A stretch of DNA of 64,000 nucleotides from an uncultured Chloroflexia bacterium (GTDB lineage Bacteria; Chloroflexota; Dehalococcoidia; DSTF01; JALHUB01): contig OY970386.1 of assembly GCA_963719465.1 (NCBI GenBank), positions 981,789-1,045,788 on the forward strand, written 5' to 3'. Under the pieces are notes generated by a model, which searched no databases, was not told the DNA's origin, and worked only from the letters and a program-made list of their open reading frames with translations. The position numbers and the translations under genes were made by a program. How positions within the stretch are numbered: position 1 is the stretch's first letter; every line of letters starts with the position of its first letter. This document shows positions 26,453 to 61,471 of this stretch, piece after piece.

Positions 26453-26505
26453 CATGGTGAAGACTATACTCCACTTTGCCAGTAGATGCGATATCAGTGA
26501 AAAGC

Positions 26506-27123
26506 ATGAATTTCGTAGGGCCATACCCAAAGAAACTGCAACGCTCCTTCTACGAACGAGGCGCTCGCACGGTCGCCAGGCAGCTCCTCGGCAAGCGCCT
26601 TGTCTACCAGCGCGAAGGGAGGCGCCTCGCCGGCAGAATCGTCGAGACGGAGGCGTACCTGGGCGTGCGGGACATGGCGTCTCACGCCTTCCGCGGCCGG
26701 ACGAAGCGCACGGAGGTGATGTTCGGCGCGGGGGGCCACCTCTACATGTACTTCATCTACGGCTTGTTCTGGATGATGAACGTGGTGACCGAGACGGAGG
26801 GCAGCGCCGGCGCGGTCCTGCTGCGGGCGCTGGAGCCGCTGGAAGGCGTAGACGAGATGAAAGCGAACCGCGGCGGCAAGGACGGCCGGCTGGTCGCCTC
26901 CGGGCCGGCGCGGCTGACACGCGCGCTGGGCGCCGACGGCAGCCTGAACGGCGTCGACCTCTGCGGCGACCTCGTTTGGATAGAGGATTGGGGCGAGAGG
27001 GTGAAGCCGTCGGAGATCGCGGCGACGCGAAGAGTGGGCGTCGCTTACGCCGGCGGCTGGAAGGAGCGAAAGCTGCGGTTCTACCTTTCGAGCAACGAAT
27101 TCGTGTCGAGACCGCGCCTGTAG
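26506..27123 (+). CDS. DNA-3-methyladenine glycosylase (MPG/AAG family)
   Basis: Family motifs RIVETEAYLG, GHLYMYFIYG and NVV. About 205 aa. Confidence 0.85.
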   Translation: MNFVGPYPKKLQRSFYERGARTVARQLLGKRLVYQREGRRLAGRIVETEAYLGVRDMASHAFRGRTKRTEVMFGAGGHLYMYFIYGLFWMMNVVTETEGSAGAVLLRALEPLEGVDEMKANRGGKDGRLVASGPARLTRALGADGSLNGVDLCGDLVWIEDWGERVKPSEIAATRRVGVAYAGGWKERKLRFYLSSNEFVSRPRL

Positions 27124-32988: not shown

Positions 32989-33483
32989 TTGTCGCGAGTC
33001 CTGGAGGGAGAGCCGGGAGGAAGCGGCCTATCCCTGGCCATCGTCGTCTCCCGGTTCAACCAGGCCCTGACCGAGAAGCTGCTTGCCGGCGCCAGAGAGG
33101 CGCTGGCGACGTGCGAAGTCGACGACAAGCGGGTCAACGTCGCCTGGGTGCCGGGTTCGTTTGAACTGCCGCTGGCCGCGAAGCGCCTGGCCGAGACGGG
33201 TCGATACCAGGCAATCGTCTGTCTGGGATGCGTCCTCCGCGGTGAGACGTCCCATTTCGATTACGTGGCGGGACAGGCGGCGGAAGGCATCGAGCGGGTG
33301 GCGCTGGACACGGGCGTGCCGGTGGCCTTCGGCGTGATCACCGCCGAAACGCTTCAGCAGGCGGTTGAAAGGGCTGGTGGCGCGCACGGCAACAAGGGCT
33401 ATGACGCCGTTCTGACAGCCGTACGCATGGCAAACCTGCTGAAGAAGATCGACGCAGTGGGGGAGAAGGAGCAGGGAAAGTGA
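32989..33483 (+). CDS. ribH: 6,7-dimethyl-8-ribityllumazine synthase
   Basis: 164 aa with TTG start. Family motifs IVVSRFN and GVITAET. Confidence 0.9.
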   Translation: MSRVLEGEPGGSGLSLAIVVSRFNQALTEKLLAGAREALATCEVDDKRVNVAWVPGSFELPLAAKRLAETGRYQAIVCLGCVLRGETSHFDYVAGQAAEGIERVALDTGVPVAFGVITAETLQQAVERAGGAHGNKGYDAVLTAVRMANLLKKIDAVGEKEQGK

Positions 33484-33812
33484 CTGAGATAGACCAGGTG
33501 AGGGAGCTGACACCCGACAACGACATCTGGGAGCAGCCGGTCATCGGCGAGCAGCCGGACGGTCTGACCAACGACGCGCTGGGGCTGGCGCACAAGGCGC
33601 TCGACAAGTTCCCGGAGCTACGAAAGCGCTACATCCGCGTGGCCGGGCCGGCGGCCATCATCTCCACCGGCGCCGTCTTGCTGGCCGGCATGGCCATCGC
33701 TCGCCGGCAGCGTCGCGGTGAATCGCCGGACGAGATCCTGGAAGGGCTGACGCCCGAGGAGATCGAGAACGCCGTCCGCCTGGACGGGACCGAGGGCGAA
33801 GAAGAGGAATAG
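33480..33812 (+). CDS. hypothetical membrane-anchored protein
   Basis: 110 aa. GTG overlaps the ribH stop (GTGA). One TM helix and an acidic tail. No recognised domain. Confidence 0.4.
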   Translation: MTEIDQVRELTPDNDIWEQPVIGEQPDGLTNDALGLAHKALDKFPELRKRYIRVAGPAAIISTGAVLLAGMAIARRQRRGESPDEILEGLTPEEIENAVRLDGTEGEEEE

Positions 33813-33824: not shown

Positions 33825-34076
33825 CTAGGTCACCCTGTAGACGTGGTCGCCGTGGCGCACACGGTCCTTCACCTTGATTCCAACGGCCTGGCCGGCTTTC
33901 GCCTCTTCGACCCCCACGCCGTCGATCTGCATCGAGTCCACCGTCTGCTCCAGGTCTGTTGTGTGCCCCTTGATGTGAATCGTGTCGCCCGCGCGCAGCG
34001 TTTCGCTGAGCTCGATCCCGGCGACGTTGATCCGCGCGAAGAATTCGTTGATGACGCCTATTTGCTGCTCAGCCAT
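33825..34076 (-). CDS. small beta-barrel protein resembling EF-Tu domain 2 (translation elongation factor-like)
   Basis: 83 aa from the ATG after GGAAGGAG. Segment DTIHIKGHTTDLEQTVDSMQIDGVGVEEAKAGQAVGIKV resembles an EF-Tu domain 2 barrel. Confidence 0.45.
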   Translation of the reverse strand: MAEQQIGVINEFFARINVAGIELSETLRAGDTIHIKGHTTDLEQTVDSMQIDGVGVEEAKAGQAVGIKVKDRVRHGDHVYRVT

Positions 34077-34262
34077 GATGCGCTCCTTCCGCTTGGCTGC
34101 CTTGTCGTCCCTGTCAAGCGCTAGCATAGCGGCCGACGACGCGGCTTTCAACGGCAGGCCTCCCGCCGGCCTCTTAGCCAATCAGTATACTTCCTGTCTG
34201 CGGCCATGTCATAATAATGATAGCGAATTCAAGTTCAGAGCTACTCTTGAGAGGATATCTGG

Positions 34263-35477
34263 ATGTTGGGGGTCACAAGGCTCTTGTGCGGCACCGTCAC
34301 GCCCGGCGACGCTTTGCGCTTCGGGCGGCTTTCCGGCGAGCTGCCGCCGCACCTGCTGCACTACTCAGAGGACAAGAAGCCGGTCATCGCCTGGAACGTG
34401 ACGCGGCGCTGCAACCTGCATTGCGCCCACTGCTACACCGACTCCTTCGACCGCGCCTATGAGGGCGAGCTGACGACGGAGGAGGCGAAGGCCGTAGTCG
34501 ACGACCTCGCGGCGTTCGGCGTGCCGGTCATCCTCTTCAGCGGCGGCGAGCCGCTGCTGCGACCCGACCTGCCGGAGCTCATCGAGCGGGCGCAGAGGCA
34601 TGGAATCCGCAGCGTCCTTTCGACCAACGGCACGCAGATCAGCCGCGACATCGCGCAGCAAATGAAACGCCTCGGCCTATCCTACGTCGGCGTCAGCATC
34701 GACGGACCGGCGCCCGTCCATGACCGTTTTCGCGGCATGGTGGGCGCTTTCCAGGAAGCGATGCAGGGCATCCGCAACTGCAAGCAGGCCGGCCTCCGAG
34801 TGGGCCTGCGCGTGACTTTGACGCAGTTCAGCTTCGCCCACTTGAAGGAGATCTTCGACATCGTCGACAGCGAGGATATTCCCCGCCTCTGCTTCTATCA
34901 CCTCGCTTACGCCGGCCGCGGCGACCGCATCATCAAGTTCGACCTGTCGCACGCGGAGACCCGCGCCGCCGTCGACCTTATCTTCGCGCGAACGCTGGAC
35001 TTCGCCCGCCGCGGCAACACGAAGGACGTCCTGACGGTGGACAACCACACCGACGCCGTCTACCTCTATCAGACGGTGCGTGAGATGGAGCCCCAGCGCG
35101 CCGACGAGGTGCTGCAGATGCTGCGCTGGCAGGGAGGCAACCAGTCGGGGATCGCCGTGGGCAACATCGACCCGCTGGGAAACGTTCACGCCGACCAGTT
35201 CAGCGGCAGTCACAGCTTCGGCAACGTGAGGGAGCGTCCTTTCAGCCAGATCTGGACGGACGAGAGCGACCCCGTTCTCGCCGCGCTCAGACACCGTCGC
35301 GGGCACGTGAAGGGGCGTTGCGCCCGCTGCGGCTATTTCGACATCTGCAACGGCAACCTGCGCGCCCGCGCGGAGTCCTACTTCGGCGACTTCTGGATGG
35401 AAGACCCGGCGTGCTATATGACCGACGCCGAGCTCAACATGGCGCCCGAAGAGGCGACCGCGCAGGCTGGACAATAG
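34263..35477 (+). CDS. radical SAM/SPASM protein of the NirJ/AhbC/AhbD family (tetrapyrrole modification)
   Basis: CNLHCAHCY radical SAM motif after a LLCG...DALRFGR...LPxHLL N-terminus, which I recall as typical of NirJ-family heme enzymes. C-terminal SPASM Cys cluster (CARCGYFDICNGNLR). Adjacent to sirC/hemA. Confidence 0.65.
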   Translation: MLGVTRLLCGTVTPGDALRFGRLSGELPPHLLHYSEDKKPVIAWNVTRRCNLHCAHCYTDSFDRAYEGELTTEEAKAVVDDLAAFGVPVILFSGGEPLLRPDLPELIERAQRHGIRSVLSTNGTQISRDIAQQMKRLGLSYVGVSIDGPAPVHDRFRGMVGAFQEAMQGIRNCKQAGLRVGLRVTLTQFSFAHLKEIFDIVDSEDIPRLCFYHLAYAGRGDRIIKFDLSHAETRAAVDLIFARTLDFARRGNTKDVLTVDNHTDAVYLYQTVREMEPQRADEVLQMLRWQGGNQSGIAVGNIDPLGNVHADQFSGSHSFGNVRERPFSQIWTDESDPVLAALRHRRGHVKGRCARCGYFDICNGNLRARAESYFGDFWMEDPACYMTDAELNMAPEEATAQAGQ

Positions 35478-35481
35478 CGCG

Positions 35482-36123
35482 ATGGCCTACTACCCACTTT
35501 TCCTGGACATGAAGGGGCGCCGCTGCCTGGTTGTCGGCGGCGGACAGGTGGCGGCGCGAAAGGTCGAAGGACTGCTGGCCGCCGGCGCTTCCGTGGCCGT
35601 TGTCAGCGTGTCGCTCGATCCGGAGATCGACAGGCTGAAAGCGGAAAGGCGCATCCAGCACGTCGCCAGGCAGTACCAGAGCGGCGACCTGAAGGGATAC
35701 ACCGTGGTCATCGCGGCGACGGACGACGAGGCGACAAACGAGCGCGTGGCGATGGATGCGCGGCGGAGCGACGTTCTCGTGAACGTCGTCGACCAGCCGG
35801 CGCTCTGCGATTTCATCGTGCCGTCGGTGATTCGCCGCGGCAACGTCGTTCTCGCCATATCGACTGGCGGTCTCAGCCCGGCGCTGGCCCGCTGGCTTCG
35901 CGAGCATCTTGAGACGTTCGTCACGGAGGACTTCGAGCGGCTGGCGCAGCTTCTGGCCGACGTGCGGGTCGAGCTGCGGGAGCGGGGCGTATCGGTTGCG
36001 GCCGACGCCTGGCAGCGCGCCATCGACAAGCGCCTGCTGGAGCTCATCGCGGCTGGACGCTTCGACGAGGCGCGGGCGAAGCTGCTGGCTTCGCTGGGCG
36101 CCGGCGCGCAAATGAAAGCTTGA
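35482..36123 (+). CDS. sirC: precorrin-2 dehydrogenase / sirohydrochlorin ferrochelatase (siroheme synthase N-terminal domain type)
   Basis: Rossmann motif VVGGGQVAARK. Similar to the CysG N-terminal / Met8 domain. Confidence 0.8.
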   Translation: MAYYPLFLDMKGRRCLVVGGGQVAARKVEGLLAAGASVAVVSVSLDPEIDRLKAERRIQHVARQYQSGDLKGYTVVIAATDDEATNERVAMDARRSDVLVNVVDQPALCDFIVPSVIRRGNVVLAISTGGLSPALARWLREHLETFVTEDFERLAQLLADVRVELRERGVSVAADAWQRAIDKRLLELIAAGRFDEARAKLLASLGAGAQMKA

Positions 36124-36148
36124 ATCGAGAATCGGGGGCCCGTCCGCC

Positions 36149-37426
36149 TTGCTGTATTTAGGAACGATCGACCAGAAGACCGCGCCTGTCGCGGTGCGGG
36201 AGCGTTTCGCGTTCTGCGCCGAGGAAGTGGAGCGCGCGCTCGCCCGTCTACGAAGCGAGCTGGGCAGCGGCGTCATCCTTTCGACCTGCAATCGCACCGA
36301 ACTCTACATCGACGCTCCTGCTGGCCGCGACATGCCGGAGCAAATGCTTTCGTTCTTGGCGGACGCGAAGGGGCTCGCCGAGGGGCTGTTCGACGACCGC
36401 TTCCATTTCTATCAGGATGCCGACGCGGTCCGCCACCTGTTTCGCGTGACGGCCGGCATCGAATCGCAGGTGCTGGGCGAGGCGGAGATACTGGGACAGG
36501 TGCGCTCGGCGTTTACCGCTGCCACCGACGCTAACTCGACGACGCCCTACCTGGCGCGGCTCTTCCACTCGGCCATTCGCGTCGGCCGCCGCGCCCGCAG
36601 CGAGACGGAGATCGGCCGCCACGGCCTGTCGGTGAGCGCCGCAGCCGTCGCTCTGGCGCGCAAGACGCTGGGCAACCTTTCGGAGCGGTGCGCCCTTGTG
36701 ATCAGCGCCGGCGAGGCGGGGAAGCTGACCGCGCACGCTCTCCAGGACTGCGGCGTCGGGCGAACGCTGGTGGTGAGCCGCCGCTTCGAGCGCGCCGAGC
36801 AACTGGCGACGGAGCTTTCCGGCGAGGCGCTGCCGCTCGACCGCCTGAGCGAGGCGCTGGCGACGTCGGACATCGTCATCACCTCTTCCGGTTCGCCTTC
36901 GTTCATTATCGACTGCAATCTGCTGGAACAGGTCATGCCGCAGCGGAACGGCTCGCCGCTGCTGCTCATCGACATCGCGGTGCCGCGGGACGTGGAGCCG
37001 GCAGTGCGCGATTTCGGCGGTGTGTACCTGTACGACATCGACGACCTGCAGTCGGTAGCCGAAGCGAATCGCCGGGCGCGGCAGAAGGAGTCGCCTGCGG
37101 TGGAAGCGATCGTCGAAGAGGAGGCGCAGCGCTTCCTCGATTGGTCGCGCTCGCTGGCGGTGGTGCCGACGATAAGAGCGATCCGCCGCTACGCGGAGCG
37201 AATTCGCCAGGACGAACTGGCAAAGACGCTGGCGCGCCTGCCCGACCTCTCGGACGAAGAGAAGCAGCGCATCGACAGCCTCTCGGAGGCGATCGTGAAG
37301 AAGCTGCTCCATCGCCCCATTTCCCGCTTGAAGGCGAAAGCCGGCGGCACGGCCGTCCTTGAATCGGCGCGCCAGCTTTTCGGAACCGACGAAGCGCCGG
37401 GCCGGCGGGACAGGCCGGACTCCTGA
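36149..37426 (+). CDS. hemA: glutamyl-tRNA reductase
   Basis: Family motifs ILSTCNRTELY and the NADP-binding and dimerisation domains. Confidence 0.9.
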   Translation: MLYLGTIDQKTAPVAVRERFAFCAEEVERALARLRSELGSGVILSTCNRTELYIDAPAGRDMPEQMLSFLADAKGLAEGLFDDRFHFYQDADAVRHLFRVTAGIESQVLGEAEILGQVRSAFTAATDANSTTPYLARLFHSAIRVGRRARSETEIGRHGLSVSAAAVALARKTLGNLSERCALVISAGEAGKLTAHALQDCGVGRTLVVSRRFERAEQLATELSGEALPLDRLSEALATSDIVITSSGSPSFIIDCNLLEQVMPQRNGSPLLLIDIAVPRDVEPAVRDFGGVYLYDIDDLQSVAEANRRARQKESPAVEAIVEEEAQRFLDWSRSLAVVPTIRAIRRYAERIRQDELAKTLARLPDLSDEEKQRIDSLSEAIVKKLLHRPISRLKAKAGGTAVLESARQLFGTDEAPGRRDRPDS

Positions 37427-37430
37427 CACG

Positions 37431-38351
37431 ATGACGGGCAGGACGCTGATCGTAGGGACGCGAGGCAGCCGGCTGGCCCGCCGCCAAACGGAAATCGTGA
37501 TCGAGGCGCTCCGGCAACGCCATCCGGACCGCAACTTCGAGATTCGCACCGTCACAACCACCGGCGACCGGCGTCCGCAGCCGCTCGCCGAGATCGCCGG
37601 CGAGGGCGTGTTCACGAAAGAACTCGAAGAGGCGCTCCTTCGTGATGAGATTGACATGGCGGTCCACAGCCTCAAAGACCTGCCGACGCAGCTTCACCCA
37701 CAGCTCGCGCTGGCGGCCGTGACGGCCCGCGAAGACGTGCGCGACGCGCTGGTCTCGGCCGGCGGCCAAACGCTGGCCCGGCTTCCGGCGGGAGCGCGCA
37801 TCGGCACGGGCAGCGTCCGGCGGGCCGCGCAGATGCGCCTCTTGCGACCCGGTATCGAAGCGGTGCCGATCCGCGGCAACGTCGATACGCGCCTCGCCAA
37901 GGTGGGCGGCGATGAGATAGACGCCGTGATCGTGGCGGCGGCGGCGCTGGCAAGGCTGGGTCGCCTCGACGCCGCGGCCGAGCTGCTACCGCTGGAGGCG
38001 ATGCTGCCGGCGCCCGGCCAGGGAGCGCTGGCGGTCGAGACGCGGGCTGACGATACCGAGGCGCGCGAGGTCGCGTCCGCCGTCGATGATGACGATACGC
38101 ATCGGGCGACGACAGCGGAGCGGGCGTTTCTGCGACGGCTCGGCGGCGGCTGTCGCGTGCCGGTCGCGGCGTACGCGACGGTCGAAACCGGCGGACTGCG
38201 CCTTCGAGGGCTGGTCGTGGAGCCGGACGGCACGCGCGCCTACCGCGGCCAGATTGACGGCCCCGCGGCGGAAGCGGAAGCTCTGGGAGAACGCCTGGCC
38301 GAAAGGCTGCTCTCTGAAGGCGCTTCAAGAACGCTCGAAGGGATCAGATGA
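37431..38351 (+). CDS. hemC: hydroxymethylbilane synthase (porphobilinogen deaminase)
   Basis: Family motifs LIVGTRGSRLA...TTGD and the dipyrromethane cofactor Cys (GGGCRVP). Confidence 0.9.
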   Translation: MTGRTLIVGTRGSRLARRQTEIVIEALRQRHPDRNFEIRTVTTTGDRRPQPLAEIAGEGVFTKELEEALLRDEIDMAVHSLKDLPTQLHPQLALAAVTAREDVRDALVSAGGQTLARLPAGARIGTGSVRRAAQMRLLRPGIEAVPIRGNVDTRLAKVGGDEIDAVIVAAAALARLGRLDAAAELLPLEAMLPAPGQGALAVETRADDTEAREVASAVDDDDTHRATTAERAFLRRLGGGCRVPVAAYATVETGGLRLRGLVVEPDGTRAYRGQIDGPAAEAEALGERLAERLLSEGASRTLEGIR

Positions 38352-39883
38352 AGAACGCGAGCGGCAAGGTCTGGCTCGTCGGCGCGGGACCCGGCGACCC
38401 CGGGCTGATCACGGTCAAGGGCGTCAACGTCCTGGCCCGCGCGGAGGTGGTCGTCTATGACCGGCTGGTCGTCCGCAGCCTCGTCGAGCTGGCGCCGGCG
38501 AAGGCGGAGCGCATCTTCGTCGGCAAGGACCCGACGAGGAAGGGCGGCTCAGGCTTCAGCCAGCAGGAGATAGACGATCTGCTCGTCGCCAGGGCGCGCG
38601 AGGGCAAACGGGTGGTCCGGCTCAAGGGAGGCGATCCGTTCGTCTTCGGACGGGGCGGCGAGGAGGCGGAAGCGCTCGCGGACGCCGGCATCCCCTTCGA
38701 GGTGGTCCCCGGCGTGTCGTCGGCCATCGCGGCGCTCGCCTACGCGGGCATTCCGGTGACGCATCGCGGGCTGTCGTCGTCGTTCACGGTGGTGACCGGC
38801 CACGAGGACCCCGATAAGCCCGAAAGCGCGGTCGACTGGAGGCGCGTAGCAAATAGCGCCGATACGCTGGTCATCTTGATGGGCGGCTCGAATATCGGCG
38901 AGATCATGAAGCTTATCTCCGAATGCGGCCGAGCGCCCGATGACCCCGCCGCCGTTGTACGATGGGGAACCACGCCAGATCAGGCAGTAATCGCGGTAAC
39001 CATTTCTGATTTGGCGAAGCGCGTCGCCGAGGCCGGGCTGGAGCCACCGCTCGTCACGGTCGTCGGGCCGGTCGTCGGCCTGCGCGACAAGCTGCGCTGG
39101 TTCGACAACCGTCCCCTCTTCGGCAAGCACGTTCTGGTGACCCGCGCCGCTGAACAGGCCGGCGTCCTCTCGCACGCCCTGGCCGAGGCGGGCGCGGAGC
39201 CAATAGAATTGCCGACGATCGAAATCGTACGGCGCATCGACCAGAAGGCCCTGCGCAGCTCGCTGCAACGCCTGGAAGCGGGCGAGTACGACTGGCTCGT
39301 CTTCAGTAGCGCCAACGGCGTCGACATCTTCTTCGACGAGCTGCGGCGCCGCAAGAAGGACGCCCGCGTGCTGGGTCGAGCCTCCGTCTGCGCCATCGGC
39401 CCGGCGACGGCGACTGCGCTTGCCGAGCGCGGCGTCCACGCCGACGTGGTGCCGGAGCGCTTCCTTGCGGAAGGCATCGTCGAAGCGCTGACGGAGCGCG
39501 GTATAATGGGGCAGCGCGTCCTCTGGCCCCGGGCCCGCGGCGCCCGTCGAGCGCTGGTCACCGGGCTGGAGCGCTTGGGCGCAATGGTCGACGAGCTGCC
39601 GCTGTACAGCGCCGCCGTGCCGAAGCAGGTCGACGCCGAGGCGATGGCGCGGCTGCGCGCCGGTGAAGTCGACATCGTGACGTTTGCCAGCTCTTCGGCG
39701 GTGCGCAACCTGCTTAAGATGCTCGACGGCGACAAGGCGCCGCTGGAGAAGCCGCTGATCGCCTGCATCGGGCCGGTGACGGCGACCGCAGCGCGTCGAG
39801 CGGGCCTGCGCGTCGGCGTCGAAGCGCCGGATCATACTATTGAAGGCTTGCTGGCCGCGCTGTCAGACCACTTCGAAAGATGA
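38348..39883 (+). CDS. cobA-hemD: uroporphyrinogen-III C-methyltransferase / uroporphyrinogen-III synthase fusion
   Basis: N-terminal SUMT domain ([15 protein letters not shown]) and a C-terminal HemD domain. Confidence 0.9.
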
Positions 39884-40554
39884 CGCCTGGTTCCAAGAGA
39901 CAACCTGTCGCAACTGACGACGAAACGGCGAAGAGGCAGCGCCGCGTTCGCCGCCTGTACTCCCTGGTTGCCGGCATATACGACCTTCGCGTCGGCACGT
40001 TCCTGCGCTGGCGGAAGCCCGCCCTCGAGGCCCTCCGGCCCAACGCGGGGGACAAGGTGCTGGACCTGGCCTGCGGCACCGGCCTCAACTTCAGCCAGAT
40101 CCTGGCGCGGATTGGCCCTAAGGGCAGGATCGTTGGCTTGGACATTACCCGCCCTATGCTGAAGCGCGCGAGACGAAGGGCAGATCGCAGTCATTGGGAA
40201 AACGCCACCCTCGTCGAAGGCGACGCCACCGACCTGCCACTCGCCGCCGACTCCTGCGACGCCGTGCTCTGCTCCTACGCCATGGCGATTATTCCCGACT
40301 ACCGCACGGCGATAGCGGAGGCGGTCCGCGTCCTCAAGCCCGGCGGACGGCTCGTATTGCTGGAGCCGAAGCGCGGCTCGACCCTCTGGGGCCGGTTGCT
40401 GACTCCGCTGGTGGCGCCTTCTGGCGTCGGCATCGTCCACCTCGACCGGAGAGCGTGGGAGGAGCTACCCGCACTTCTGGAAGACGTTTCGCGACGTGAC
40501 TATGCGGGCGGGCTGGTGTACATTGCCAGTGGCACGAAAGCGAGGGACCGGTGA
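39880..40554 (+). CDS. class I SAM-dependent methyltransferase (UbiE/COQ5-like), inserted within the hem cluster
   Basis: Motif I VLDLACGTG and GGRLVLLE. Flanked by two diverged copies of the cobA-hemD 3' end. Confidence 0.75.
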   Translation: MTPGSKRQPVATDDETAKRQRRVRRLYSLVAGIYDLRVGTFLRWRKPALEALRPNAGDKVLDLACGTGLNFSQILARIGPKGRIVGLDITRPMLKRARRRADRSHWENATLVEGDATDLPLAADSCDAVLCSYAMAIIPDYRTAIAEAVRVLKPGGRLVLLEPKRGSTLWGRLLTPLVAPSGVGIVHLDRRAWEELPALLEDVSRRDYAGGLVYIASGTKARDR

Positions 40555-40672
40555 TGGCAGCCGCGGCGCGTGGCGCGGGCCCGCGCATAGACGTCGGAGC
40601 GCCTGAGCACACGGTCGAGGGGTTGCTAGCGGCGCTGGAATTTGCATATGCCGAAACGAAGGGGGCCATGAA

Positions 40673-41032
40673 ATGGGGTTGACAACCATCGAGCTCGAAA
40701 TCGCCAACGTCGCCGATCCTGAACAGACCGAGAGGTTAGAGTTTCTCATCGATTCCGGTGCCATCTACTCCGTCGTGCCGGCAGTTGTGCTACAGCGGCT
40801 CGGCATAAAACCGATAGCGCAGCAGGACTTCCGGTTGGCTGACGGGACAAAGATCTCGCGCCGGAAAGGCGTAGCCCTTTTCCGATACCAAGACAAGATC
40901 GGTGGTGCCGACGTTATCTTCGGCGAGGAGGGCGATGCGACGCTGCTTGGCGCGTTCACTCTCGAAGCGCTTGGCCTCGGTCTAGACCCGTTGAAGCGGG
41001 AATTGCGTGATCTCCCCATGATGCTTGCATGA
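40673..41032 (+). CDS. retropepsin-like (clan AA) aspartic protease, single-domain
   Basis: 119 aa. The LIDSGA catalytic D-S-G-A motif and its length match bacterial retropepsin-like proteases. Confidence 0.65.
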   Translation: MGLTTIELEIANVADPEQTERLEFLIDSGAIYSVVPAVVLQRLGIKPIAQQDFRLADGTKISRRKGVALFRYQDKIGGADVIFGEEGDATLLGAFTLEALGLGLDPLKRELRDLPMMLA

Positions 41033-41043
41033 AAAGGTAACCT

Positions 41044-42018
41044 ATGAACGGTGACGTTCGTCGATTTCGGCGGCTGCGGGACAGCAACTCAATGCGGCGG
41101 CTCGTGCGGGAGACGAGGCTTTCCCCGGAGGACTTCGTCTACCTGCTGTTCGTCGTGCACGGCAGCGGCGTTCGTAACGCCATCCCATCGATGCCGGGCC
41201 AGTCGCAGCTCTCCGTCGACCAGCTTGCCGCCGAGGCGCGCGAGCTGCGCGAGCTCGGCATTCCCGCCGTCCTCCTCTTCGGCATACCGGCGTCGAAGGA
41301 CGAGCAGGCGTCGGAGGCATACGCGCCGGACGGCATCGTCCAGCAGGCGGTCCGCGCCCTCAAGCAGGCCGACCCGGAACTCCTCGTCATCACGGACGTC
41401 TGCCTCTGCGAGTACACAAGCCACGGCCACTGCGGCATCGTCAAGAACGGCGACGTCGATAACGACGCCACGCTGCCGCTGCTCGCCAAGACGGCGCTCT
41501 CGCACGCCCAGGCCGGCGCCGACATGGTCGCCCCGTCGGCGATGATGGACGGCCAGGTGTCGGCCATCCGCGGGGCGCTCGACGAGAGCGGCTTCTCGCA
41601 GACGCCGATCATGGCCTACGCCGCCAAGTACGCCTCCGCCTTCTACGGGCCGTTCCGCGAGGCGGCGGAGTCGGCGCCGCAGTTCGGCGACCGCTGCGGC
41701 TATCAGATGGACCCGGCGAACGTCCGCGAGGCGTTGCGCGAGATCGAGGGCGATATCGCCGAGGGCGCTGACATTGTGATGGTGAAGCCGGCGCTCGCCT
41801 ACCTGGACGTGCTCGCCCGCGCCCGCCGGCGCTTCGACCTGCCGCTTGCCGCCTATAACGTCAGCGGCGAGTACGCTATGATTAAAGCGGCGTCGGCGAA
41901 CGGCTGGCTCGACGAGAAGCGCGTCGTTCTCGAGGTGCTGACGGCGATCAAGCGGGCCGGCGCGGACGTCATTATCACGTATCACGCCAAGGACGCCGCC
42001 CGCTGGCTGACCGCTTGA
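41044..42018 (+). CDS. hemB: porphobilinogen synthase (delta-aminolevulinic acid dehydratase)
   Basis: Active-site Lys motifs and conserved VKPA and SGEYAM blocks. Confidence 0.9.
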
Positions 42019-42057
42019 GCGCCTGCGGTGCGTCCGGTGCCAAACCTGAAAAAGCTA

Positions 42058-42899
42058 TGTCTGATCTTCCCACCCGCCCACCCGAGATGCGTTGGGATTC
42101 GGGGGACACCCCCGAACCCCCGGAAGAGAGGGATCCCCTCTCTTCACTCTCCCTTTCTCGGCGTGACGGCATTCGCGCCATCGCCTTCGACTGCTACGGC
42201 ACGCTGATCGACTTCACCGACCAGGCGTTCATCCGCGCCTACCACGAGATCTGCGTTCAGCAGGGCATCGCCTGCGACGGCCGGACGCTCTGGGAGAAGT
42301 GGATGGACATCTGGCGGCGCATGTCGTCCGTGGTCAGCGACTATGAAAGTCCGCGCAACGAGCCCACCTCCTGGACCCGCACGATGGCTAGCTTCCGACC
42401 TTATAGTGAAGCCTGGCCGGAGCATTTCGAGGCCTGCTTCCGCGAGCTCGGCGTTCGCGGGGACGGCGTCGCTGCCTACGCGCACGTCCGCAACGGACTG
42501 GCAGACGCGCCGGCGTTCGCGGAAACGGCCGAGGTGCTGTCGGCGCTGAAGTCGCGCTACCACCTGGGCATCCTCTCCAACGCCGACGACGACTTTCTGA
42601 ACGCCTGTCTCGAGAAGAACGGCCTGCACGTCGAGTTCCAGCTCATCGTCACGTCCGAGAGCGCGGGCGTCTACAAGCCGCGGCAGGAGATATTCCACTC
42701 GTTCGTCGAAGCGAGCGGCTTCCAGCGACACGAGGTGCTATACGTTGGCGACAGCCAGTCGGCGGACGTGCTGGGCGCCAAGAACGCGGGCCTGCCCGTA
42801 GCCTGGGTCAACCGCGACGGTTCGCCGCTCAGGGAAGGCGTGCCGCAGCCAGACCACGAAGTCGCCTCGCTGCGCGAGCTTCTCGGAATCTTATCGTAG
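42058..42899 (+). CDS. HAD-superfamily hydrolase (haloacid dehalogenase type II-like)
   Basis: Motif I FDCYGTL, motif III K and motif IV GDSQSAD. The true start is probably downstream of the repeat element, so the N-terminal Pro-rich extension is doubtful. Confidence 0.7.
42064..42140 (-). repeat. dispersed GC-rich hairpin repeat, copy 2 of 3 (inverted)
   Basis: Its reverse complement aligns with copies at 30976 and 53123 (ATCTTCCCACCCGCCC...GGGGGACACCCCCGAACCCC). Lies just 3' of the hemB stop and overlaps the annotated N-terminal extension of the HAD ORF. Confidence 0.65.
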
Positions 42900-42907
42900 C
42901 CGGGACT

Positions 42908-44245
42908 TTGCAGTTTCGGCGCCGGTCCGTTTCGACCCGGGTCGATGGAATGATGCCGCTGTCCCATGACCGTTCGCACGAAGTCTTCCAGCGCTCGCTG
43001 CGCTACCTGGCCGGCGGCGTCGACAGCCCCGTCCGCGCCTTCCGAGCCGTCGGCGGCGAGCCCATCGTTGTCGCCCGCGGCGAAGGGCCGTACCTGTTCG
43101 ACGTGGATGGCAATCGCTACGTCGACTACGTCTGTTCCTGGGGCGCGCTCATCCTCGGGCACGCGCACGCCGCCGTCGTCGCAGCGGTCCGGAAGGCGGC
43201 GGAGCGCGGCAGCAGCTACGGCGCGCCGACGGAGCCGGAGGCCGACCTGGCGCAGCTCATCGTCGAAGCCGTGCCGTCGATTGAGACGGTCCGCTTCGTG
43301 AACTCCGGTACCGAGGCCACGATGTCGGCGCTGCGCCTGGCCCGCGCCTTCAGCAGACGCGACAAGATCGTCAAGTTCGAGGGCGCCTATCACGGGCACG
43401 CCGACGGTCTGCTCGTGCGCGCCGGCTCGGGCGTGGCGACGCTGGCCCTTCCCGACAGCCCGGGTGTGCCGGCTTCATACGCCCAGGAAACCCTCATCGC
43501 CCGCTACAACAACGTCGAGAGCGTCGAGCGCCTGTTCGAACGATACGCCGGCGAGATAGCGGCGGTCATCGTCGAGCCGGTCGCCGGCAACATGGGCGTC
43601 GTGCCTCCCCAGCCAGGCTTTCTGGCGTCGCTGCGCGAGATCACGCGGTGTGAGGGCGCGCTGCTCATCTTCGACGAGGTGATTACGGGCTTCCGCGTCG
43701 CATTCGGCGGCGCTCAGTCGCTCTACGGGATCGTGCCGGACTTGACGTGCCTTGGGAAGATCATCGGCGGTGGACTGCCGGTCGGAGCCTACGGCGGCCG
43801 GCGCGACGTGATGGCGATGCTGGCGCCGGAAGGCCCCGTCTACCAGGCGGGGACGCTCTCCGGCAACCCGCTGGCGATGGCGGCGGGACTGGCGACGCTG
43901 CGGGAGCTGCAGTCGCCGGGCTTCTATGAGCGGTTGGAGACGCTTTCGTGGAAGCTGGCGGAGGGAATTGCTGTGGCAGCCAAGCGCGCTGGCGTACCGC
44001 TTCAGCTAAATCGCGTCGGCTCGATGTTCACGCCCTTCTTCGTCGACAGCCCGGTCAGCGATTATGGGAGCGCCCGCCGCGCCGACACCGAACGCTACGC
44101 AAGCTTCTTCCACGCCATGCTGGAGCGCGGCGTCTACCTGCCGCCGTCGCAGTTCGAAGCAGCATTTGTGTCCTCAGCCCACGGGGATGAGCAGATCGAC
44201 GCCACAATCGCGGCCTTCCAGCAGGCGCTGACGGAGCTGTCCTAG
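42908..44245 (+). CDS. hemL: glutamate-1-semialdehyde 2,1-aminomutase
   Basis: Class-III aminotransferase fold with the PLP Lys motif (CLGKIIGGG). Confidence 0.9.
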
Positions 44246-44279: not shown

Positions 44280-44308
44280 TTGACAATCCCCCGTTCTGGT
44301 GCTAAATT
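44280..44308 (+). promoter_or_regulatory. sigma-70-type promoter (TTGACA-17-TAAATT)
   Basis: TTGACA at 44280..44285. TAAATT at 44303..44308, 17-nt spacer. Confidence 0.5.
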
Positions 44309-44317
44309 GCCATCAGG

Positions 44318-44498
44318 CCTAGCTCGTCAGTCGCGGTGGGCGGCGACGAGACGGGGGAACCGAAGGCAGCATGGGGTGTACTCGCTTGGAGCGAGAGGGC
44401 AGTCTCTTTCAGCCCTAACCCGACAGCTAACCTCGTAGGCCACTGAAAGAGGGCTGGTTCCAAACAAGGCGGCCGGAGCCAACTCCTCCGGCTTTTTT
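44318..44498 (+). promoter_or_regulatory. candidate cyclic-di-AMP riboswitch (ydaO/kimA class) with intrinsic terminator, upstream of otsA
   Basis: Contains ACGGGGGAACCGAAGG, GGGGUGUACUC and CCCUAACCCGACAGCUAACCUCGUAGGC. I recall these as the conserved ACGGGGA / GGGGUGAAUCC / CCGAACCCGACAGCUAACC blocks of ydaO RNAs. A long-range closing helix (GGAACC...GGUUCC) is present. Terminator GCCGGAG-CCAA-CTCCGGC plus T6 at 44472..44498. Confidence 0.6.
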
Positions 44499-44607
44499 GC
44501 ACCCTCGTGTCCTGCCTGAATGGCGGACAGGCCCGGCCCGGTCGGTTGCGTGTATCTATATCGCTAAGGTGGGAGCGATACCCCGCGACATGCAAAAGGA
44601 GGCCGAC

Positions 44608-46191
44608 ATGGCACCTCGCGATCTCTCCGACTTTCCGCCCTTATCCGTCATCCGGCGCAGTTCAAGTCCACTCATCGTCGTCAGCAACCGCGGCCCCTTC
44701 GAGCACTATCGAGACGCCGGCGGTGTCCTGGCACGGAGGCCCACGAGCGGGGGCGTCGCCGTCGCGCTCTCCAGCATTTTCGGGCGGCAGGAGTTGACGT
44801 GGGTCGTCGGCGCTGTTGGCGATGTTGACCGCGAGCTGGCAATGCGCGACTTCCGCCGCTTTTCTTTTGGCGACGGGCATCGCCTCTGTTTCGCGTCGAC
44901 GGATTCGCACTCATACGATCTCTTCTATCGCACCTTCAGCAATCCGATTCTCTGGTTCCTGCAGCACTCGCTATGGCATCTGCTCGACGGACGGCCGAAC
45001 TTGAGGCAAGAGATCGTGCGGTCCTGGGAGGAAGGCTACGTGCCGGTAAACGCGGCCTTCGCCGCCGCGGTCTGCGACGAGATCGATGACGCGCGCGGGC
45101 CCGCCCGAGTCATGCTCCACGACTACCATCTCTACCTGGCACCACTACTCATCCGCGAGCGTCACCCGGAAGCTCAGCTCCAGCACTTCTGCCACATCCC
45201 CTGGCCGGGGCCGGAGGCCTGGCGCGTGCTGCCGGAATACGTCATCGCCCGCATCTGCGAGGGCATGCTGGCCAACGACAGCGTCGCTTTCCAGACGGAG
45301 GAATCGAAGCGCAACTTCGCGCTGACCTGCCTCGCATATCTTCCTGACACGACAGTCGATCTGGCAGAGACTGCGATCAGCCACCGGGAACGGTCGACTG
45401 GTATCTTTGCCAATCCGATATCGGTGGACGTGTTCGACCTGAGGCGGAAGCTCATCTCGCCGAAAGTGCAGGCCTACCGGCAGGCGCTGGTTGGCGAAGA
45501 TGACATAAGGACAATCGTTTGCGTCGACCGTCTGGACCCGGCAAAGAATGTCGCCGGCGCGCTGAAGGCGTTTGACCTCCTCCTTCAGCGCCATCCCGAA
45601 TGGTCGGGCAAGGTCCGGATGCTCGCCTTCCTGGTGCCGTCGCGGGTAGCGATCCCCGAGTACCAGACGTATCGGGACAAGGTCTTTACGCTCGTTGACG
45701 AGATAAACTCGCGACACGGCGACGGGCGTTGGCAGCCGCTAACGGTCTTCTACGAACAGAACCGAACCCAGGCGCTTGCCGGCTTGAGCCTATACGACGT
45801 GCTCATCGCCAACTCCATAGCCGACGGCATGAACCTTGTGGCCAAGGAAGGGCCCGTCTTGAACGGGCGCGACGGCGTCCTGGTGCTTTCGACGGCGGTG
45901 GGTGCGGCGCGCGAACTCGGCGGCGCAGCGCTGACCGTCGAGGCCGGGGACATCGAAGGGACCACCGAAGCGCTCAAACAGGCGCTGTCGATGGACGCTT
46001 CGGAGCGCCGGCAGCGGGCGCGGCTGCTGCGACAGACCATCGCGCGCCACGACATCAACGATTGGTTGGAGACGCAGATGGCGGCGTTCGGCGAACGTTC
46101 GGCGGAGATCCTTCCGGTGCCCGCATCGCTGCTCACCCGCCCGCCCTCCCGCGAGGAGCCACCCGCGCTCATCGCCGGCGGAATCTCTTGA
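44608..46191 (+). CDS. otsA: alpha,alpha-trehalose-phosphate synthase (UDP-forming), GT20
   Basis: ATG after AAGGAGG. GT20 N-terminal block VVSNRGPF and the overall length. Confidence 0.85.
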   Translation: MAPRDLSDFPPLSVIRRSSSPLIVVSNRGPFEHYRDAGGVLARRPTSGGVAVALSSIFGRQELTWVVGAVGDVDRELAMRDFRRFSFGDGHRLCFASTDSHSYDLFYRTFSNPILWFLQHSLWHLLDGRPNLRQEIVRSWEEGYVPVNAAFAAAVCDEIDDARGPARVMLHDYHLYLAPLLIRERHPEAQLQHFCHIPWPGPEAWRVLPEYVIARICEGMLANDSVAFQTEESKRNFALTCLAYLPDTTVDLAETAISHRERSTGIFANPISVDVFDLRRKLISPKVQAYRQALVGEDDIRTIVCVDRLDPAKNVAGALKAFDLLLQRHPEWSGKVRMLAFLVPSRVAIPEYQTYRDKVFTLVDEINSRHGDGRWQPLTVFYEQNRTQALAGLSLYDVLIANSIADGMNLVAKEGPVLNGRDGVLVLSTAVGAARELGGAALTVEAGDIEGTTEALKQALSMDASERRQRARLLRQTIARHDINDWLETQMAAFGERSAEILPVPASLLTRPPSREEPPALIAGGIS

Positions 46192-51670: not shown

Positions 51671-52483
51671 GTGTTGGTGGAAAGACGGGCCCGCATTTTG
51701 GGTCATATCGTAAGTGAATACGTACACACAGCGCTGCCGGTAGGTTCTGAGACCATCGTCCGCAAGTACGGCCTGCCCATCTCTCCGGCAACGGTGCGTA
51801 ACGAAATGGCGCGCTTGGAGGAGGAAGGCTACATAACGCATCCGCACACCTCCGCCGGCCGCATCCCTTCCGACATGGGGTATCGCTTCTACGTCGAAAG
51901 TCTGATGGAGGAAGAGGACCTGCCCTGGTATGAGAAGCAGTCGATCCAGAGGCGGTTGCGGATGGCGGCCAGGGCGGCTTCCGGTCGCGCTGCGCTGCTG
52001 GCGGAGCGGGCGCGAATCGCGGCCACGGTGCTGGCGGAGAGCGTGCGCAACGCCGCGGTCGCGACGGCGCCCCGTTCGCCCGGGATCGACGAAGAGGACG
52101 ACGCGCTGTACGACCGGGCTTACCTGGAAGGGCTGCGAAACGTCCTCAGCCAGCCGGAGTTCTCGCAGACGGAGGACGTCATCGACCTCGTCTGCGTGCT
52201 CGAAGAGGGCAACCTGATGCGGGCGATGCCGCTCGACAACCTCTCCGGCGAGGACGTGACCGTCGTCATCGGCGAGGAGAACCGCGAGGACGTTATGCGG
52301 CGCTGCAGCGTCGTACTGACGCGCTATGGAGTGCCGGGCACGGCCGTCGGCGTGCTGGCGGTCCTGGGGCCGACGCGGATGGCTTATTCGCGCGTCATTC
52401 CTACGGTACGTTACCTCTCACTCCTGATGGGCGATTCTCGTCGCCCAGGGCTGAGCGCCGGCCAAACAGGCGCGGGGGCAAGG
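51671..52483 (+). CDS. hrcA: heat-inducible transcription repressor HrcA (no in-frame stop; reads through into grpE)
   Basis: GTG start. N-terminal wHTH (ILGHIVSEYVHTALPVGSETIV...ATVRNEMARLEEEGYITHPHTSAGRIPSDMGYR) and a C-terminal ...GPTRMAYSRVIPTVRYL block. Continuous ORF with the next gene. Confidence 0.8.
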
Positions 52484-53287: not shown

Positions 53288-53346
53288 CCAGACCGGAGGG
53301 AGCCACCATGGCGAAGGTAATCGGAATCGACCTGGGAACAATATGA
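53288..53346 (+). repeat. duplicated copy of the dnaK RBS/start (encodes [12 protein letters not shown]-stop) followed by a 20-nt perfect hairpin
   Basis: 53288..53340 is ~85% identical to 53429..53481. Hairpin CTGAGGGT-TGAA-ACCCTCAG at 53353..53372. Confidence 0.7.
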
Positions 53347-53448
53347 GCAGTTCTGAGGGTTGAAACCCTCAGCCTTTCCTGAAGCTGCGGCACTGAAGTG
53401 AGACGGAGCCGCTGACCCAAGACACATCTCCAACCGGAGGACATCATC

Positions 53449-55342
<1,894 letters not shown>

Positions 55343-61399: not shown

Positions 61400-61471
61400 A
61401 TCACGACTGTTCACGGCAAAGCCGGGACCAGCATAAGAGAACAGAGTCGCGGACGAAGGAGGAAGTAGAAG

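Follow-up and report, generated by a model that had tools for sequence, protein, structure and literature searches.

An ahbC-headed tetrapyrrole operon of an uncultured Dehalococcoidia bacterium, a probable part of the siroheme-dependent route to heme

Introduction

A run of ten genes in a 64-kb stretch of DNA from an uncultured Dehalococcoidia (Chloroflexota) bacterium (hereafter the window) combines tetrapyrrole trunk genes with siroheme-branch genes and a radical SAM gene. This combination raises the question of which end product the run would serve: heme b made through siroheme, heme d1, another siroheme-derived cofactor, or siroheme itself. An earlier note on this DNA had proposed either the siroheme-dependent (alternative) heme pathway or a heme d1-type modification. 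In order to decide between these readings, the genes were assigned by profile searches, and the radical SAM protein and the gene order were compared with those of relatives.

Organization of the Operon

The run is tightly packed, extends from 34263 to 44245 and contains, in this order, ahbC, sirC/cysG-N, hemA, hemC, cobA-hemD, a class-I methyltransferase gene, a retropepsin-like gene, hemB, a HAD hydrolase gene and hemL. All ten genes lie on the + strand, as do all features described below, and at the positions given in the earlier note; its clustering of hemA, hemC, cobA-hemD, hemB and hemL with sirC and a radical SAM/SPASM gene was borne out by strong profile matches. Intergenic spacing is between -4 and +38 nt throughout, except for 118 nt upstream of the protease gene, and terminator-like sites are not enriched within the run (6 found versus 6.7 expected from shuffles). 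Short spacing and the lack of a terminator-like excess fit a single operon, in a Dehalococcoidia genome of high GC content; we regard this reading, taken together with the pathway assignment given below, as likely. The only sizeable upstream gap is an AT-rich leader of 81 nt (34182 to 34262), next to a divergent small ORF; judged from its sequence it is a probable promoter region, in which a ribosome-binding site, GAGAGGA, precedes the ATG of the first gene, and it had no match in Rfam. Several ORFs of the window appear frameshifted (dnaK; hrcA-grpE).

Trunk and Siroheme-Branch Genes

Five predicted activities (HemA, HemL, HemB, HemC and HemD) would lead from Glu-tRNA to uroporphyrinogen III. 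The corresponding genes are hemA for glutamyl-tRNA reductase (36149 to 37426; TIGR01035, 403 bits, cut-off 210), hemL for glutamate-1-semialdehyde 2,1-aminomutase (42950 to 44245; TIGR00713, 634 bits, cut-off 527), hemB for porphobilinogen synthase (41044 to 42018; NF006762, 519 bits, cut-off 297), hemC for hydroxymethylbilane synthase (37431 to 38351; TIGR00212, 334 bits, cut-off 164), and the hemD part of a cobA(sirA)-hemD fusion (38348 to 39883). In this fusion, a uroporphyrinogen-III C-methyltransferase domain (residues 6-246; TIGR01469, 302 bits, cut-off 185) precedes the uroporphyrinogen-III synthase domain (residues 274-502; Pfam HEM4, 219 bits). The hemC ORF opens at 37359, overlapping hemA, and its likely start is ATG 37431, as read from the sequence and from the 308-aa genes of relatives; the hemL ORF opens at 42908, and alignment with relatives places its likely start at ATG 42950 or 42953.

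The sirC gene (35482 to 36123) codes for a predicted precorrin-2 dehydrogenase of 213 aa, similar to CysG-N and Met8 (TIGR01470, 181 bits, cut-off 62). The N-terminal domain of CysG and yeast Met8p are bifunctional, acting as precorrin-2 dehydrogenase and sirohydrochlorin ferrochelatase, whereas Bacillus SirC is a dehydrogenase only. The window protein shares with the bifunctional enzymes the Pfam domains NAD_binding_7 and Sirohm_synth_M, and aligns at 179 bits with the CysG model, over that model's N-terminal portion; unlike CysG, it stands alone. It possibly doubles as the ferrochelatase, an activity predicted from these similarities. Since the window contains no separate sirohydrochlorin ferrochelatase gene (SirB/CbiX), iron insertion would rest on this putative bifunctional SirC.

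The Radical SAM Protein Is an AhbC Orthologue

The first gene of the operon (34263 to 35477) encodes a radical SAM/SPASM protein of 404 aa. AhbC, formerly NirJ1, is the 12,18-didecarboxysiroheme deacetylase. Profile score, motifs and phylogeny identify the predicted protein as an orthologue of AhbC, and not as NirJ or AhbD. It scored 558 bits with the AhbC model (TIGR04546), which it matches over its full length (residues 2-390), 546 with NirJ1, 424 with NirJ and 218 with AhbD. The first two scores are below the 650 cut-off of their models; AhbCs from complete Dehalococcoidia ahb operons score equally low on the AhbC model (563-565 bits), which indicates that the deficit reflects phylum divergence. 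The radical SAM motif CX3CX2C is present at C50/C54/C57, and a C-terminal CX2CX5CX21C auxiliary-cluster motif, described for AhbC (PMC10114771), at C353/C356/C362/C384. All Fe-S ligands are conserved, and the catalytic cysteines are invariant. The reference AhbC itself has been assayed only in cell extracts (PMC10114771). The window protein and AhbC (TIGR04546; Methanosarcina barkeri, Desulfovibrio) share one domain layout, in which a radical SAM core is preceded by an extension of about 40 residues and followed by the auxiliary-cluster motif. The N-terminus had been called typical of NirJ, AhbC and AhbD alike. This holds for AhbC/NirJ1-type proteins, to which the motif LLCGT..PGDALR..LLHY of the extension is specific, but not for NirJ and AhbD, the models of which align only from residue 39-41.

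In a neighbor-joining tree, the window AhbC fell within a clade of ten sequences with 100% bootstrap that includes locus L005. This clade was sister (89%) to the AhbCs of full-operon Dehalococcoidia, which are 58-60% identical to the window protein, and both together had as their sister group (74%) AhbCs that pass the cut-off and come from ahbC-hemB-ahbD loci (51-59% identity). NirJ sequences formed a separate clade. These results bear directly on the heme d1 option, in which the protein would be a NirJ that serves a cytochrome cd1 nitrite reductase by removing propionates from didecarboxysiroheme. NirJ (TIGR04051) and AhbC are indeed close homologues acting on one substrate (PMC10114771); NirJ is likewise a two-cluster radical SAM enzyme, 46-50% identical to the window protein over residues 40-395, and its model gives that protein 424 bits. 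However, this score is under the NirJ cut-off of 515, while real NirJ proteins reach 634-640 bits on their own model and only 370-399 on that of AhbC, and they lack the 40-residue extension. Pfam scans of the window ORFs gave no nir-type match. We thus consider the heme d1 option extremely improbable, and this part of the earlier proposal was not supported.

Gene Order in Relatives and Location of the Remaining Ahb Genes

The full gene order sirC-hemA-hemC-cobA/hemD-hemB-ahbD-ahbC-ahbAB-hemL was found in L009, L011, L013 (the complete chromosome CP070630.1), L088 and L108, and likewise in L016, L089 and L102, the contigs of which are cut off. In comparison with this all-in-one operon (CP070630.1, L009, L011, L088), the window shows the hem genes in the same order and the same cobA-hemD fusion, and its AhbC has an equivalent profile score; it lacks ahbD and ahbAB, has ahbC at the 5' end, an unrelated HAD gene in the hemB-hemL interval, and a methyltransferase gene plus a variable cargo slot after cobA-hemD. 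Relative to the sister Dehalococcoidia, which keep hemB-ahbD-ahbC-ahbAB-hemL, ahbC has moved to the operon head in the clade of the window. Unlike in known AhbC loci, neither hemB/ahbD nor ahbA/B flanks it there, and it heads a sirC-hemA-hemC-cobA/hemD operon. The same ahbC-headed order, with 66-93% identity, occurs in L001-L004, L096-L100 and L161.

It could be argued that such an operon belongs to a decaying pathway, supplying only siroheme for sulfite/nitrite reductases and/or corrinoid precursors, with ahbC as a relic in a heme auxotroph. Heme auxotrophy, with gaps in the pathway, has been reported as a prediction for many Chloroflexota (bioRxiv 10.1101/2021.01.11.426183), and the frameshifted-looking ORFs mentioned above would fit decay. 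Nevertheless, the ahbC ORF is intact with a strong coding signal (GC3 0.88), and its conservation at the operon head across many metagenomes, together with the invariant catalytic cysteines, indicates purifying selection; decay therefore appears very unlikely.

The tblastn searches detected no AhbA/B, AhbD, or classical or coproporphyrin-route enzyme in the 64-kb window, and neither did Pfam scans of about 60 window ORFs (a few small ORFs left out), in agreement with the earlier statement that AhbA/B, HemH/Y/Q and HemE/N are missing from it. The siroheme decarboxylase (AhbA/B) and the enzyme converting coproheme to heme b (AhbD, or the O2/H2O2-dependent ChdC) would accordingly be encoded elsewhere in the genome. 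Using AhbA/B and AhbD queries from the nearest lineage, no protein on long contigs with window-type operons appeared among the best 120 matches listed per search, and the 120 listed for AhbA/B included none at 59%-79% identity, the range in which a copy passed on vertically might fall. Contig data for homologues cover cluster representatives only, and this failure to find the AhbA/B and AhbD of the clade is weak evidence of absence. Among relatives, the gene after ahbC in L005, inside the 100% clade, is an ahbD::ahbA/B fusion. With 250/236 bits, the fused AhbA/B proteins of relatives exceed the cut-offs (140/125) of both equivalog models. Partial permutations also occur, with ahbAB at the head in L178, at the tail in L176, and a lone ahbD-ahbAB pair in L093, indicating that in Chloroflexota it is nothing unusual for ahb gene sets to be split. 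Metagenome loci of 8 kb or more with an AhbC-like or NirJ-like homologue numbered 42, and 28 of these also contained an AhbD and/or AhbA/B-type (or NirD/L-type) gene. With AhbD and fused AhbA/B adjoining AhbC both in clade-mates and in the sister clade, the siroheme-dependent pathway proposed earlier was supported.

The last step could differ from the canonical one: AhbA/B and AhbC would lead to coproheme, and ChdC (HemQ, oxygen/peroxide-dependent) would replace AhbD. This would explain the departure of ahbD from the operon, and no close AhbD of the clade of the window was among the matches listed. Coproheme is common to both routes, and its conversion falls to either AhbD or ChdC, depending on the organism (PMC7242693, PMC10114771); a mixture of protoporphyrin-, coproporphyrin- and siroheme-route enzymes has been reported for Chloroflexota genomes (PMC10991733), and PMC5746218 proposes a mixed Ahb/ChdC set for Haloferax. 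On the other hand, no ChdC gene was seen within the 64-kb window, and the near relative L093 (AhbD 78% and AhbA/B 80% identical to those of L005) keeps its ahbD-ahbAB pair with no adjoining ahbC, the pattern expected if ahbD simply lies elsewhere. We consider a ChdC finish unlikely, though not far-fetched.

The Methyltransferase, Protease and HAD Hydrolase Genes

The three further genes described in the earlier note are all present. The first (39880 to 40554) codes for a class-I SAM methyltransferase, UbiE-like, with Pfam and NCBIfam matches that are under every equivalog cut-off; in the PDB, the sequences closest to it are generic methyltransferases, MitM among them. The first 4 nt of the gene (ATGA) are shared with the end of cobA-hemD; it is kept in L001 (83%) and L002 (76%) and absent from L003 and the full-operon relatives. 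It is probably a passenger.

A variable cargo slot follows up to hemB (40555 to 41043), as defined by comparison with relatives: it holds a DUF4145 gene in L001, nothing in L002 and the protease gene in the window, the only copy of the operon to contain one, and its DNA aligns over the first 90 nt or so and diverges beyond. The protease gene (40673 to 41032) codes for a stand-alone retropepsin-like (clan AA) aspartic protease of 119 aa, which matches PF13650 (26.3 bits, cut-off 24.3) and is under the TIGR03698 cut-off (41.8 versus 57). Its GC3 is 0.68, versus about 0.8-0.9. Despite this lower value the ORF is a real gene, since its family comprises 2440 representative clusters and its AF2 model (pLDDT 93.4) matches retroviral proteases (top Foldseek matches HTLV-1, FIV and HIV proteases, TM 0.6-0.69). 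As in stand-alone prokaryotic retropepsin-like proteases (TIGR03698, clan AA), there is a single half-domain with the D-S-G catalytic triplet (residues 27-29; D27 and G29 nearly invariant in the family) and a predicted retroviral-like fold; the window protein has no membrane or other domain. Rickettsia APRc is a characterised bacterial retropepsin.

The HAD-superfamily hydrolase (42057 to 42899) falls in the 2-haloacid-dehalogenase-like subgroup (TIGR01428, 117.9 bits, cut-off 125.4). Its motif I, FDCYGTL, is without the second Asp of phosphatases, and within the PDB it comes closest in sequence to PH0459, L-2-haloacid dehalogenases and azetidine-2-carboxylate hydrolase. Although the ORF begins at TTG 42015, translation probably starts at ATG 42057 or 42087, leaving the first 14-24 codons untranslated; nothing in L001-L003 corresponds to the Pro-rich N-terminus, counted from M15 or M25. 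The gene is kept in these three loci and absent from full-operon relatives.

The link to heme that their position had implied was not sustained: gene content varies among relatives, and on this account the three genes look like passengers without a role in heme synthesis. A contrary reading would be that a neofunctionalised AhbC-like enzyme, together with the methyltransferase and perhaps the HAD hydrolase, makes a modified siroheme-derived cofactor other than heme b, AhbA/B and AhbD being truly absent from the clade. The start-stop overlap of the methyltransferase gene and its conservation in the closest relatives would agree with this, as would the AhbC score under the equivalog cut-off and the lack of a clade-specific AhbA/B or AhbD among the matches listed. 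However, L003 and the remaining ahbC-bearing hem operons all lack the methyltransferase gene, the L005 AhbC adjoins ahbD::ahbAB, the score deficit is shared with complete-operon AhbCs and all Fe-S ligands are conserved, and the haloacid-dehalogenase-type residues of the HAD protein suggest no tetrapyrrole chemistry. Such a cofactor is therefore highly improbable.

Discussion

The operon likely carries the genes for every step of the common tetrapyrrole trunk, for the siroheme branch and for a single committed enzyme of the Ahb route, with activities predicted from homology. Following uroporphyrinogen III formation, CobA/SirA would produce precorrin-2, and the CysG-N/Met8-like SirC sirohydrochlorin, probably with iron insertion; after decarboxylation of siroheme, AhbC would yield Fe-coproporphyrin III (coproheme) by taking the two acetate side chains off 12,18-didecarboxysiroheme. 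We infer completeness of the pathway, as we do the choice of AhbD or ChdC for its last step. The siroheme-dependent route to heme is already known, and the window is a rearranged but ordinary example of it.

Organization of the Operon

The tetrapyrrole gene cluster that an earlier note had placed at 34263-44245 of the forward strand was confirmed: profile searches resolved it into ten ORFs with strong third-position GC, in a window of ~64.5% GC. These code for a radical SAM/SPASM protein (34263-35477), identified below as AhbC, a CysG-N/SirC protein (35482-36123), HemA (36149-37426), HemC (ORF opening at 37359, likely start at 37431), a CobA-HemD fusion (38348-39883), a class-I methyltransferase (39880-40554), a 119-aa clan-AA aspartic protease (40673-41032), HemB (41044-42018), a HAD hydrolase (ORF opening at 42015, likely start at 42057 or 42087), and HemL (ORF opening at 42908, likely start at 42950). 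All hem and siroheme enzymes of the run passed their curated cut-offs, with AhbC falling below its own. The nearest public relatives of the genes in the window belong to metagenome-assembled Dehalococcoidia (Chloroflexota).

Intergenic spacing varies from -4 to +38 nt, with the exception of 118 nt ahead of the protease gene, and terminator-like hairpins are not commoner in the run than in shuffled sequence. The run is preceded by a riboflavin operon and then two small ORFs without assigned function, and followed by a c-di-AMP riboswitch and an otsA-like gene. Spacing, hairpin count, and flanking genes therefore define clear operon limits. Rfam searches of the sequence ahead of the operon detected no regulatory RNA.

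The flanking regions showed some features of their own. A 110-aa ORF without a family match (33480-33812, forward strand) overlaps the ribH stop codon by 4 nt, and it is kept in position, with 55-88% identity, in several of the compared loci of relatives (designated L and a number; L001-L004, L096-L098, and L161). A small divergent ORF (33825-34181, reverse strand), also conserved, gave only a faint match to EF-Tu domain 2. The riboswitch is of the ydaO type (RF00379, 77.6 bits; 44306-44456, forward strand), with a sigma-70-like promoter before it (44280-44308) and a terminator-like hairpin after it (44471-44493). It is located directly ahead of a GT20 trehalose-6-phosphate-synthase-like gene (44497-46191), an arrangement that suggests c-di-AMP control of osmolyte synthesis.

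Identification of the Radical SAM Protein as AhbC

The radical SAM protein has as its best database match an entry labeled "MAG: radical SAM protein [Dehalococcoidia bacterium]" (93% identity). Among curated families it scored best, and over its full length, with TIGR04546 (AhbC; 558 bits), followed by the older NirJ1 model (546 bits), a haloarchaeal pseudo-SAM model (425 bits), NirJ (424 bits), and AhbD (218 bits). The score of 558 bits fails the TIGR04546 equivalog cut-off of 650. AhbC proteins encoded within complete ahb operons of other Dehalococcoidia fail it too (563-565 bits), and those from loci with the order ahbC-hemB-ahbD, at 750-756 bits, are above it. Since AhbC proteins of the same class from complete operons also remain under 650 bits, this cut-off does not cover Chloroflexota.

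The earlier note had left heme d1-type modification as an alternative, in which the enzyme would be a NirJ. The window protein does score on the NirJ model, but its 424 bits are under the cut-off of 515 (TIGR04051); genuine NirJ proteins from metagenomes reached 634-640 bits on that model and merely 370-399 bits on the AhbC one. No nir-type match was found among the window ORFs scanned. In a neighbor-joining tree of 40 sequences (100 bootstraps, AhbD as outgroup), NirJ formed a clade of its own apart from the AhbC proteins. On score, gene context, and tree, the NirJ identity and with it the heme d1 alternative were rejected.

In the same tree, the radical SAM protein grouped with AhbC rather than with AhbD or NirJ. 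It belongs to a clade with 100% bootstrap support together with L001-L003, L096-L100, and L005, which is sister (89%) to the AhbC proteins of Dehalococcoidia with a full operon; both are joined at 74% to the AhbC proteins that pass the cut-off. The radical SAM motif CX3CX2C (C50-N-L-H-C54-A-H-C57) is invariant in a five-sequence alignment of the clade, and so are all four cysteines of the auxiliary-cluster motif C353-x2-C356-x5-C362-x21-C384. A C-terminal CX2CX5CX20-21C motif of this kind is common to AhbC, AhbD, and NirJ (PMC10114771). The N-terminal segment, described in the earlier note as typical of NirJ, AhbC, and AhbD alike, is aligned by the AhbC and NirJ1-type models only; the NirJ and AhbD models begin at residue 39-41. 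The structures retrieved from the PDB by sequence search with AhbC were distant SPASM enzymes, with no AhbC or NirJ among them. Judged from its sequence, the protein is AhbC, with a predicted activity in the conversion of didecarboxysiroheme to Fe-coproporphyrin III.

Arrangement of ahb and hem Genes in Relatives

The window represents an arrangement with ahbC at the head of the hem operon, which was found in at least ten further loci with 66-93% identity. The layout is kept from the rib operon through otsA in L001 and L002 (93 and 85% AhbC identity, respectively). In L003 (71%) the run from ahbC to cobA-hemD is kept, as are hemB and the HAD gene further on, and other insertions lie between them. 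In L005, a clade-mate with 70% AhbC identity, ahbC is directly followed by a gene for an AhbD::AhbA-AhbB fusion (11306-13528), in which a radical SAM/SPASM AhbD is joined to a tandem siroheme decarboxylase. This 740-aa polypeptide carries in one chain, just after ahbC, domains for three steps' worth of the pathway.

When the genome collection was scanned with the L005 fusion, 80 loci were listed, of which nearly all carried the label Chloroflexota. Using the window proteins in tblastn searches, several Dehalococcoidia among them were found to have the order sirC-hemA-hemC-cobA/hemD-hemB-ahbD-ahbC-ahbAB-hemL, which is present on a complete chromosome (CP070630.1; L013) and also in L088, L089, L102, and L108. 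The AhbA/B parts of the fused AhbAB of relatives pass both siroheme-decarboxylase equivalogs (NF040708 and NF040707), and the AhbD encoded next to ahbC reached 465-492 bits on TIGR04545 (cut-off 500).

Other permutations place ahbAB after hemB (L176) or ahead of sirC-hemA (L178), and many metagenome loci have the order ahbC-hemB-ahbD, similar to that of Desulfovibrio. L093 has an ahbD-ahbAB pair without ahbC (11-6548), divergent from a gene set for a multiheme cytochrome c, NrfD, and a 4Fe-4S protein; this neighboring gene set is a heme consumer. Among the listed metagenome matches with an AhbC-like or NirJ-like homologue and a length of at least 8 kb, 28 of 42 loci also had AhbD, a gene of the AhbA/B or NirD/L type, or both. 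These permutations and this co-occurrence indicate that split ahb sets attached to hem operons are common in Chloroflexota.

An unexpected pairing of heme and quinone genes was observed in L006 (10001-12018) and L007 (74-2091). There, the gene for an AhbC homologue (595 bits on TIGR04546; 62% identity to that of the window) has a 4-nt overlap with a VitK2_biosynth gene that is MqnA/MqnD-like, as in the futalosine route to menaquinone.

Completeness of the Pathway

The front steps of the siroheme branch are encoded in the operon by a uroporphyrinogen-III methyltransferase (CobA domain, 302 bits) and a precorrin-2 dehydrogenase (SirC/CysG-N, 181 bits). No domain of a sirohydrochlorin ferrochelatase of the CbiX/SirB type was detected in the window ORFs scanned; the CysG-N-like SirC may be bifunctional and insert iron as well. 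As the earlier note had stated, AhbA/B is absent from the 64-kb window by tblastn and Pfam scans. AhbD is absent as well, its sole tblastn match being a 30% cross-match to ahbC. The association with ahbA/B and ahbD is seen in the clade-mate L005, where the genes are adjacent, and in the sister clade, and the window is without both. For the terminal decarboxylation of coproheme, either AhbD or the alternative enzyme ChdC may serve.

In genomes of the window clade, neither AhbA/B nor AhbD was found among the matches listed, whether by homologue search, by cluster membership, or by contig; at this depth of listing, the negative result does not show that they are absent. None of the 80 loci returned with the L005 fusion came from an assembly known to hold a window-type operon, and no listed member of the AhbAB or AhbD clusters was on the contigs of such genomes (2,314,715, 2,283,752, 833,213, 335,924, and 198,347 bp, and others). 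All candidate AhbAB proteins that were looked up belonged to other arrangements or lineages (full operon, ahbD-ahbAB pair, ahbAB at the tail, or ahbAB at the head). One reading would be that the ahbC-headed operon works in this clade without canonical AhbA/B and AhbD, either in an undescribed hybrid or towards a modified siroheme-derived product. The hybrid would combine the Ahb front end with ChdC or another terminal enzyme; in the second case, the clade-specific methyltransferase and the DxY-type HAD hydrolase would take part. Its basis is that neither protein appeared at the expected similarity among the matches listed in a well-sampled clade, and we consider it very improbable. The siroheme-dependent pathway to heme proposed in the earlier note is supported for the enzyme and for the clade, while its completeness is not proven for this genome.

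The Three Embedded Genes

The 119-aa retropepsin-like protease proposed earlier is a real gene. It carries the catalytic triplet D27-S28-G29, with D27 and G29 conserved in at least 90% of 46 homologues, and belongs to a family of 2440 representative clusters at E <= 1e-3. It passed PF13650 (26.3 bits, cut-off 24.3) and remained below TIGR03698 (41.8 bits, cut-off 57.35). An AF2 model built from the 46-sequence alignment had a pLDDT of 93.4, and its top Foldseek matches were the HTLV-1, FIV, HIV-1, and XMRV proteases (TM 0.53-0.69); a single-sequence model was unusable (pLDDT 42.6), and the PDB sequence search gave no match. The slot between the methyltransferase gene and hemB is occupied in L001 by a phage-related DUF4145 gene and is empty in L002. 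The protease is strain-specific cargo. PADLOC and PHROGs gave no defense match for the protease, for what relatives carry in its slot, or for the two small upstream ORFs. The sole clear PHROGs match was that of the L001 DUF4145 cargo to a phage "DNA binding protein" family, a marginal match of the 118-aa upstream ORF to a family of unknown function (E 0.0019) being uninformative.

The start of the methyltransferase gene overlaps the cobA-hemD stop codon, and the gene is conserved in L001 and L002 and missing in L003 and all other ahb/hem loci examined. The protein is under every equivalog cut-off, its PDB neighbors are generic methyltransferases, and an identity as MenG/UbiE was not supported (93-97 bits, cut-offs 158-216). 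A steady co-occurrence of the methyltransferase and the protease with hem clusters did not emerge, the protease slot being variable and the methyltransferase confined to L001 and L002 among the loci examined. The comparison of methyltransferase and HAD co-occurrence covered L001-L003; among the matches listed in the metagenome scan with the AhbC alignment, about six were close relatives, and their contigs were short.

The HAD hydrolase is conserved across L001-L003, including its motif I FDCYGTL (DxYGT, with no second Asp), and its Pro-rich N-terminus is not common to relatives. It scored 117.9 bits on TIGR01428, just under the cut-off of 125.4. Its motif IV, however, is of the GDSxxD type. 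Its nearest PDB sequences are PH0459, L-2-haloacid dehalogenases (L-DEX), and azetidine-2-carboxylate hydrolase. The gene occupies the site of ahbD-ahbC-ahbAB in sister lineages; motif I and the solved relatives do not suggest tetrapyrrole chemistry. With the rib operon just upstream, the HAD was considered as the missing phosphatase of the riboflavin pathway; this was dropped, because a second Asp is missing from motif I and the closest related proteins are dehalogenase-like hydrolases. We read all three embedded genes as passengers, with the methyltransferase alone showing any hint of coupling.

Other Features of the Window

The dnaK gene (53292-55342, forward strand) is apparently frameshifted: its N-terminal ~160 residues, which begin near 53449, are in another frame than the 468-aa ORF at 53936-55342. 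A 48-nt stretch of its RBS/start region is present twice (53292-53339 and 53433-53480, 88% identical), and the copy creates a 12-codon mini-reading frame. The anomaly may come from an assembly or indel error, or it may be a leader. One 478-aa ORF (51671-53107, forward strand) spans both the HrcA and the GrpE domain without an intervening stop, either by a lost stop or frameshift or as a real fusion. The window also contains two tandem 297-aa PD40/WD40-like beta-propeller paralogues (14707-16537, reverse strand) and at least four MarR-family regulators (80-580, 858-1310, 21394-21810, and 25988-26530). At 59321-63281 (forward strand), EtfB- and EtfA-like genes lie downstream of a gene for a 692-aa Fe-S/CCG-domain oxidoreductase; together they may form an electron-transfer-flavoprotein-linked redox module.

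Implications for Heme Biosynthesis in Chloroflexota

The siroheme-dependent route to heme is usually ascribed to archaea and sulfate reducers (PMC7242693, PMC11306076), in which the steps of AhbA/B, AhbC, and AhbD downstream of siroheme are well established (PMC3942049, PMC7242693, PMC10114771). For Chloroflexota, mixtures of enzymes from different heme routes have been known only from genome surveys (PMC10991733). Given this established pathway and the surveyed mixtures, the window locus is a further example of a known route, and it leaves the known chemistry unchanged. In many Dehalococcoidia and other Chloroflexota, ahb genes are woven into hem operons in several permutations.

The value of the locus lies mainly in annotation and pathway surveys, and its most useful by-product is the set of AhbC and AhbD proteins below the cut-offs. 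In Chloroflexota, AhbC reached 538-595 bits (cut-off 650) and AhbD 465-492 bits (cut-off 500), as in L013 (10001-12372), L016, L093, and the window (34263-35477). Since these proteins fall just under the NCBIfam cut-offs, GenBank labels them merely "radical SAM protein". Threshold-based surveys report many gaps in the heme pathway of Chloroflexota (bioRxiv 10.1101/2021.01.11.426183); if other curated thresholds behave alike, such surveys could record the siroheme route too rarely there.
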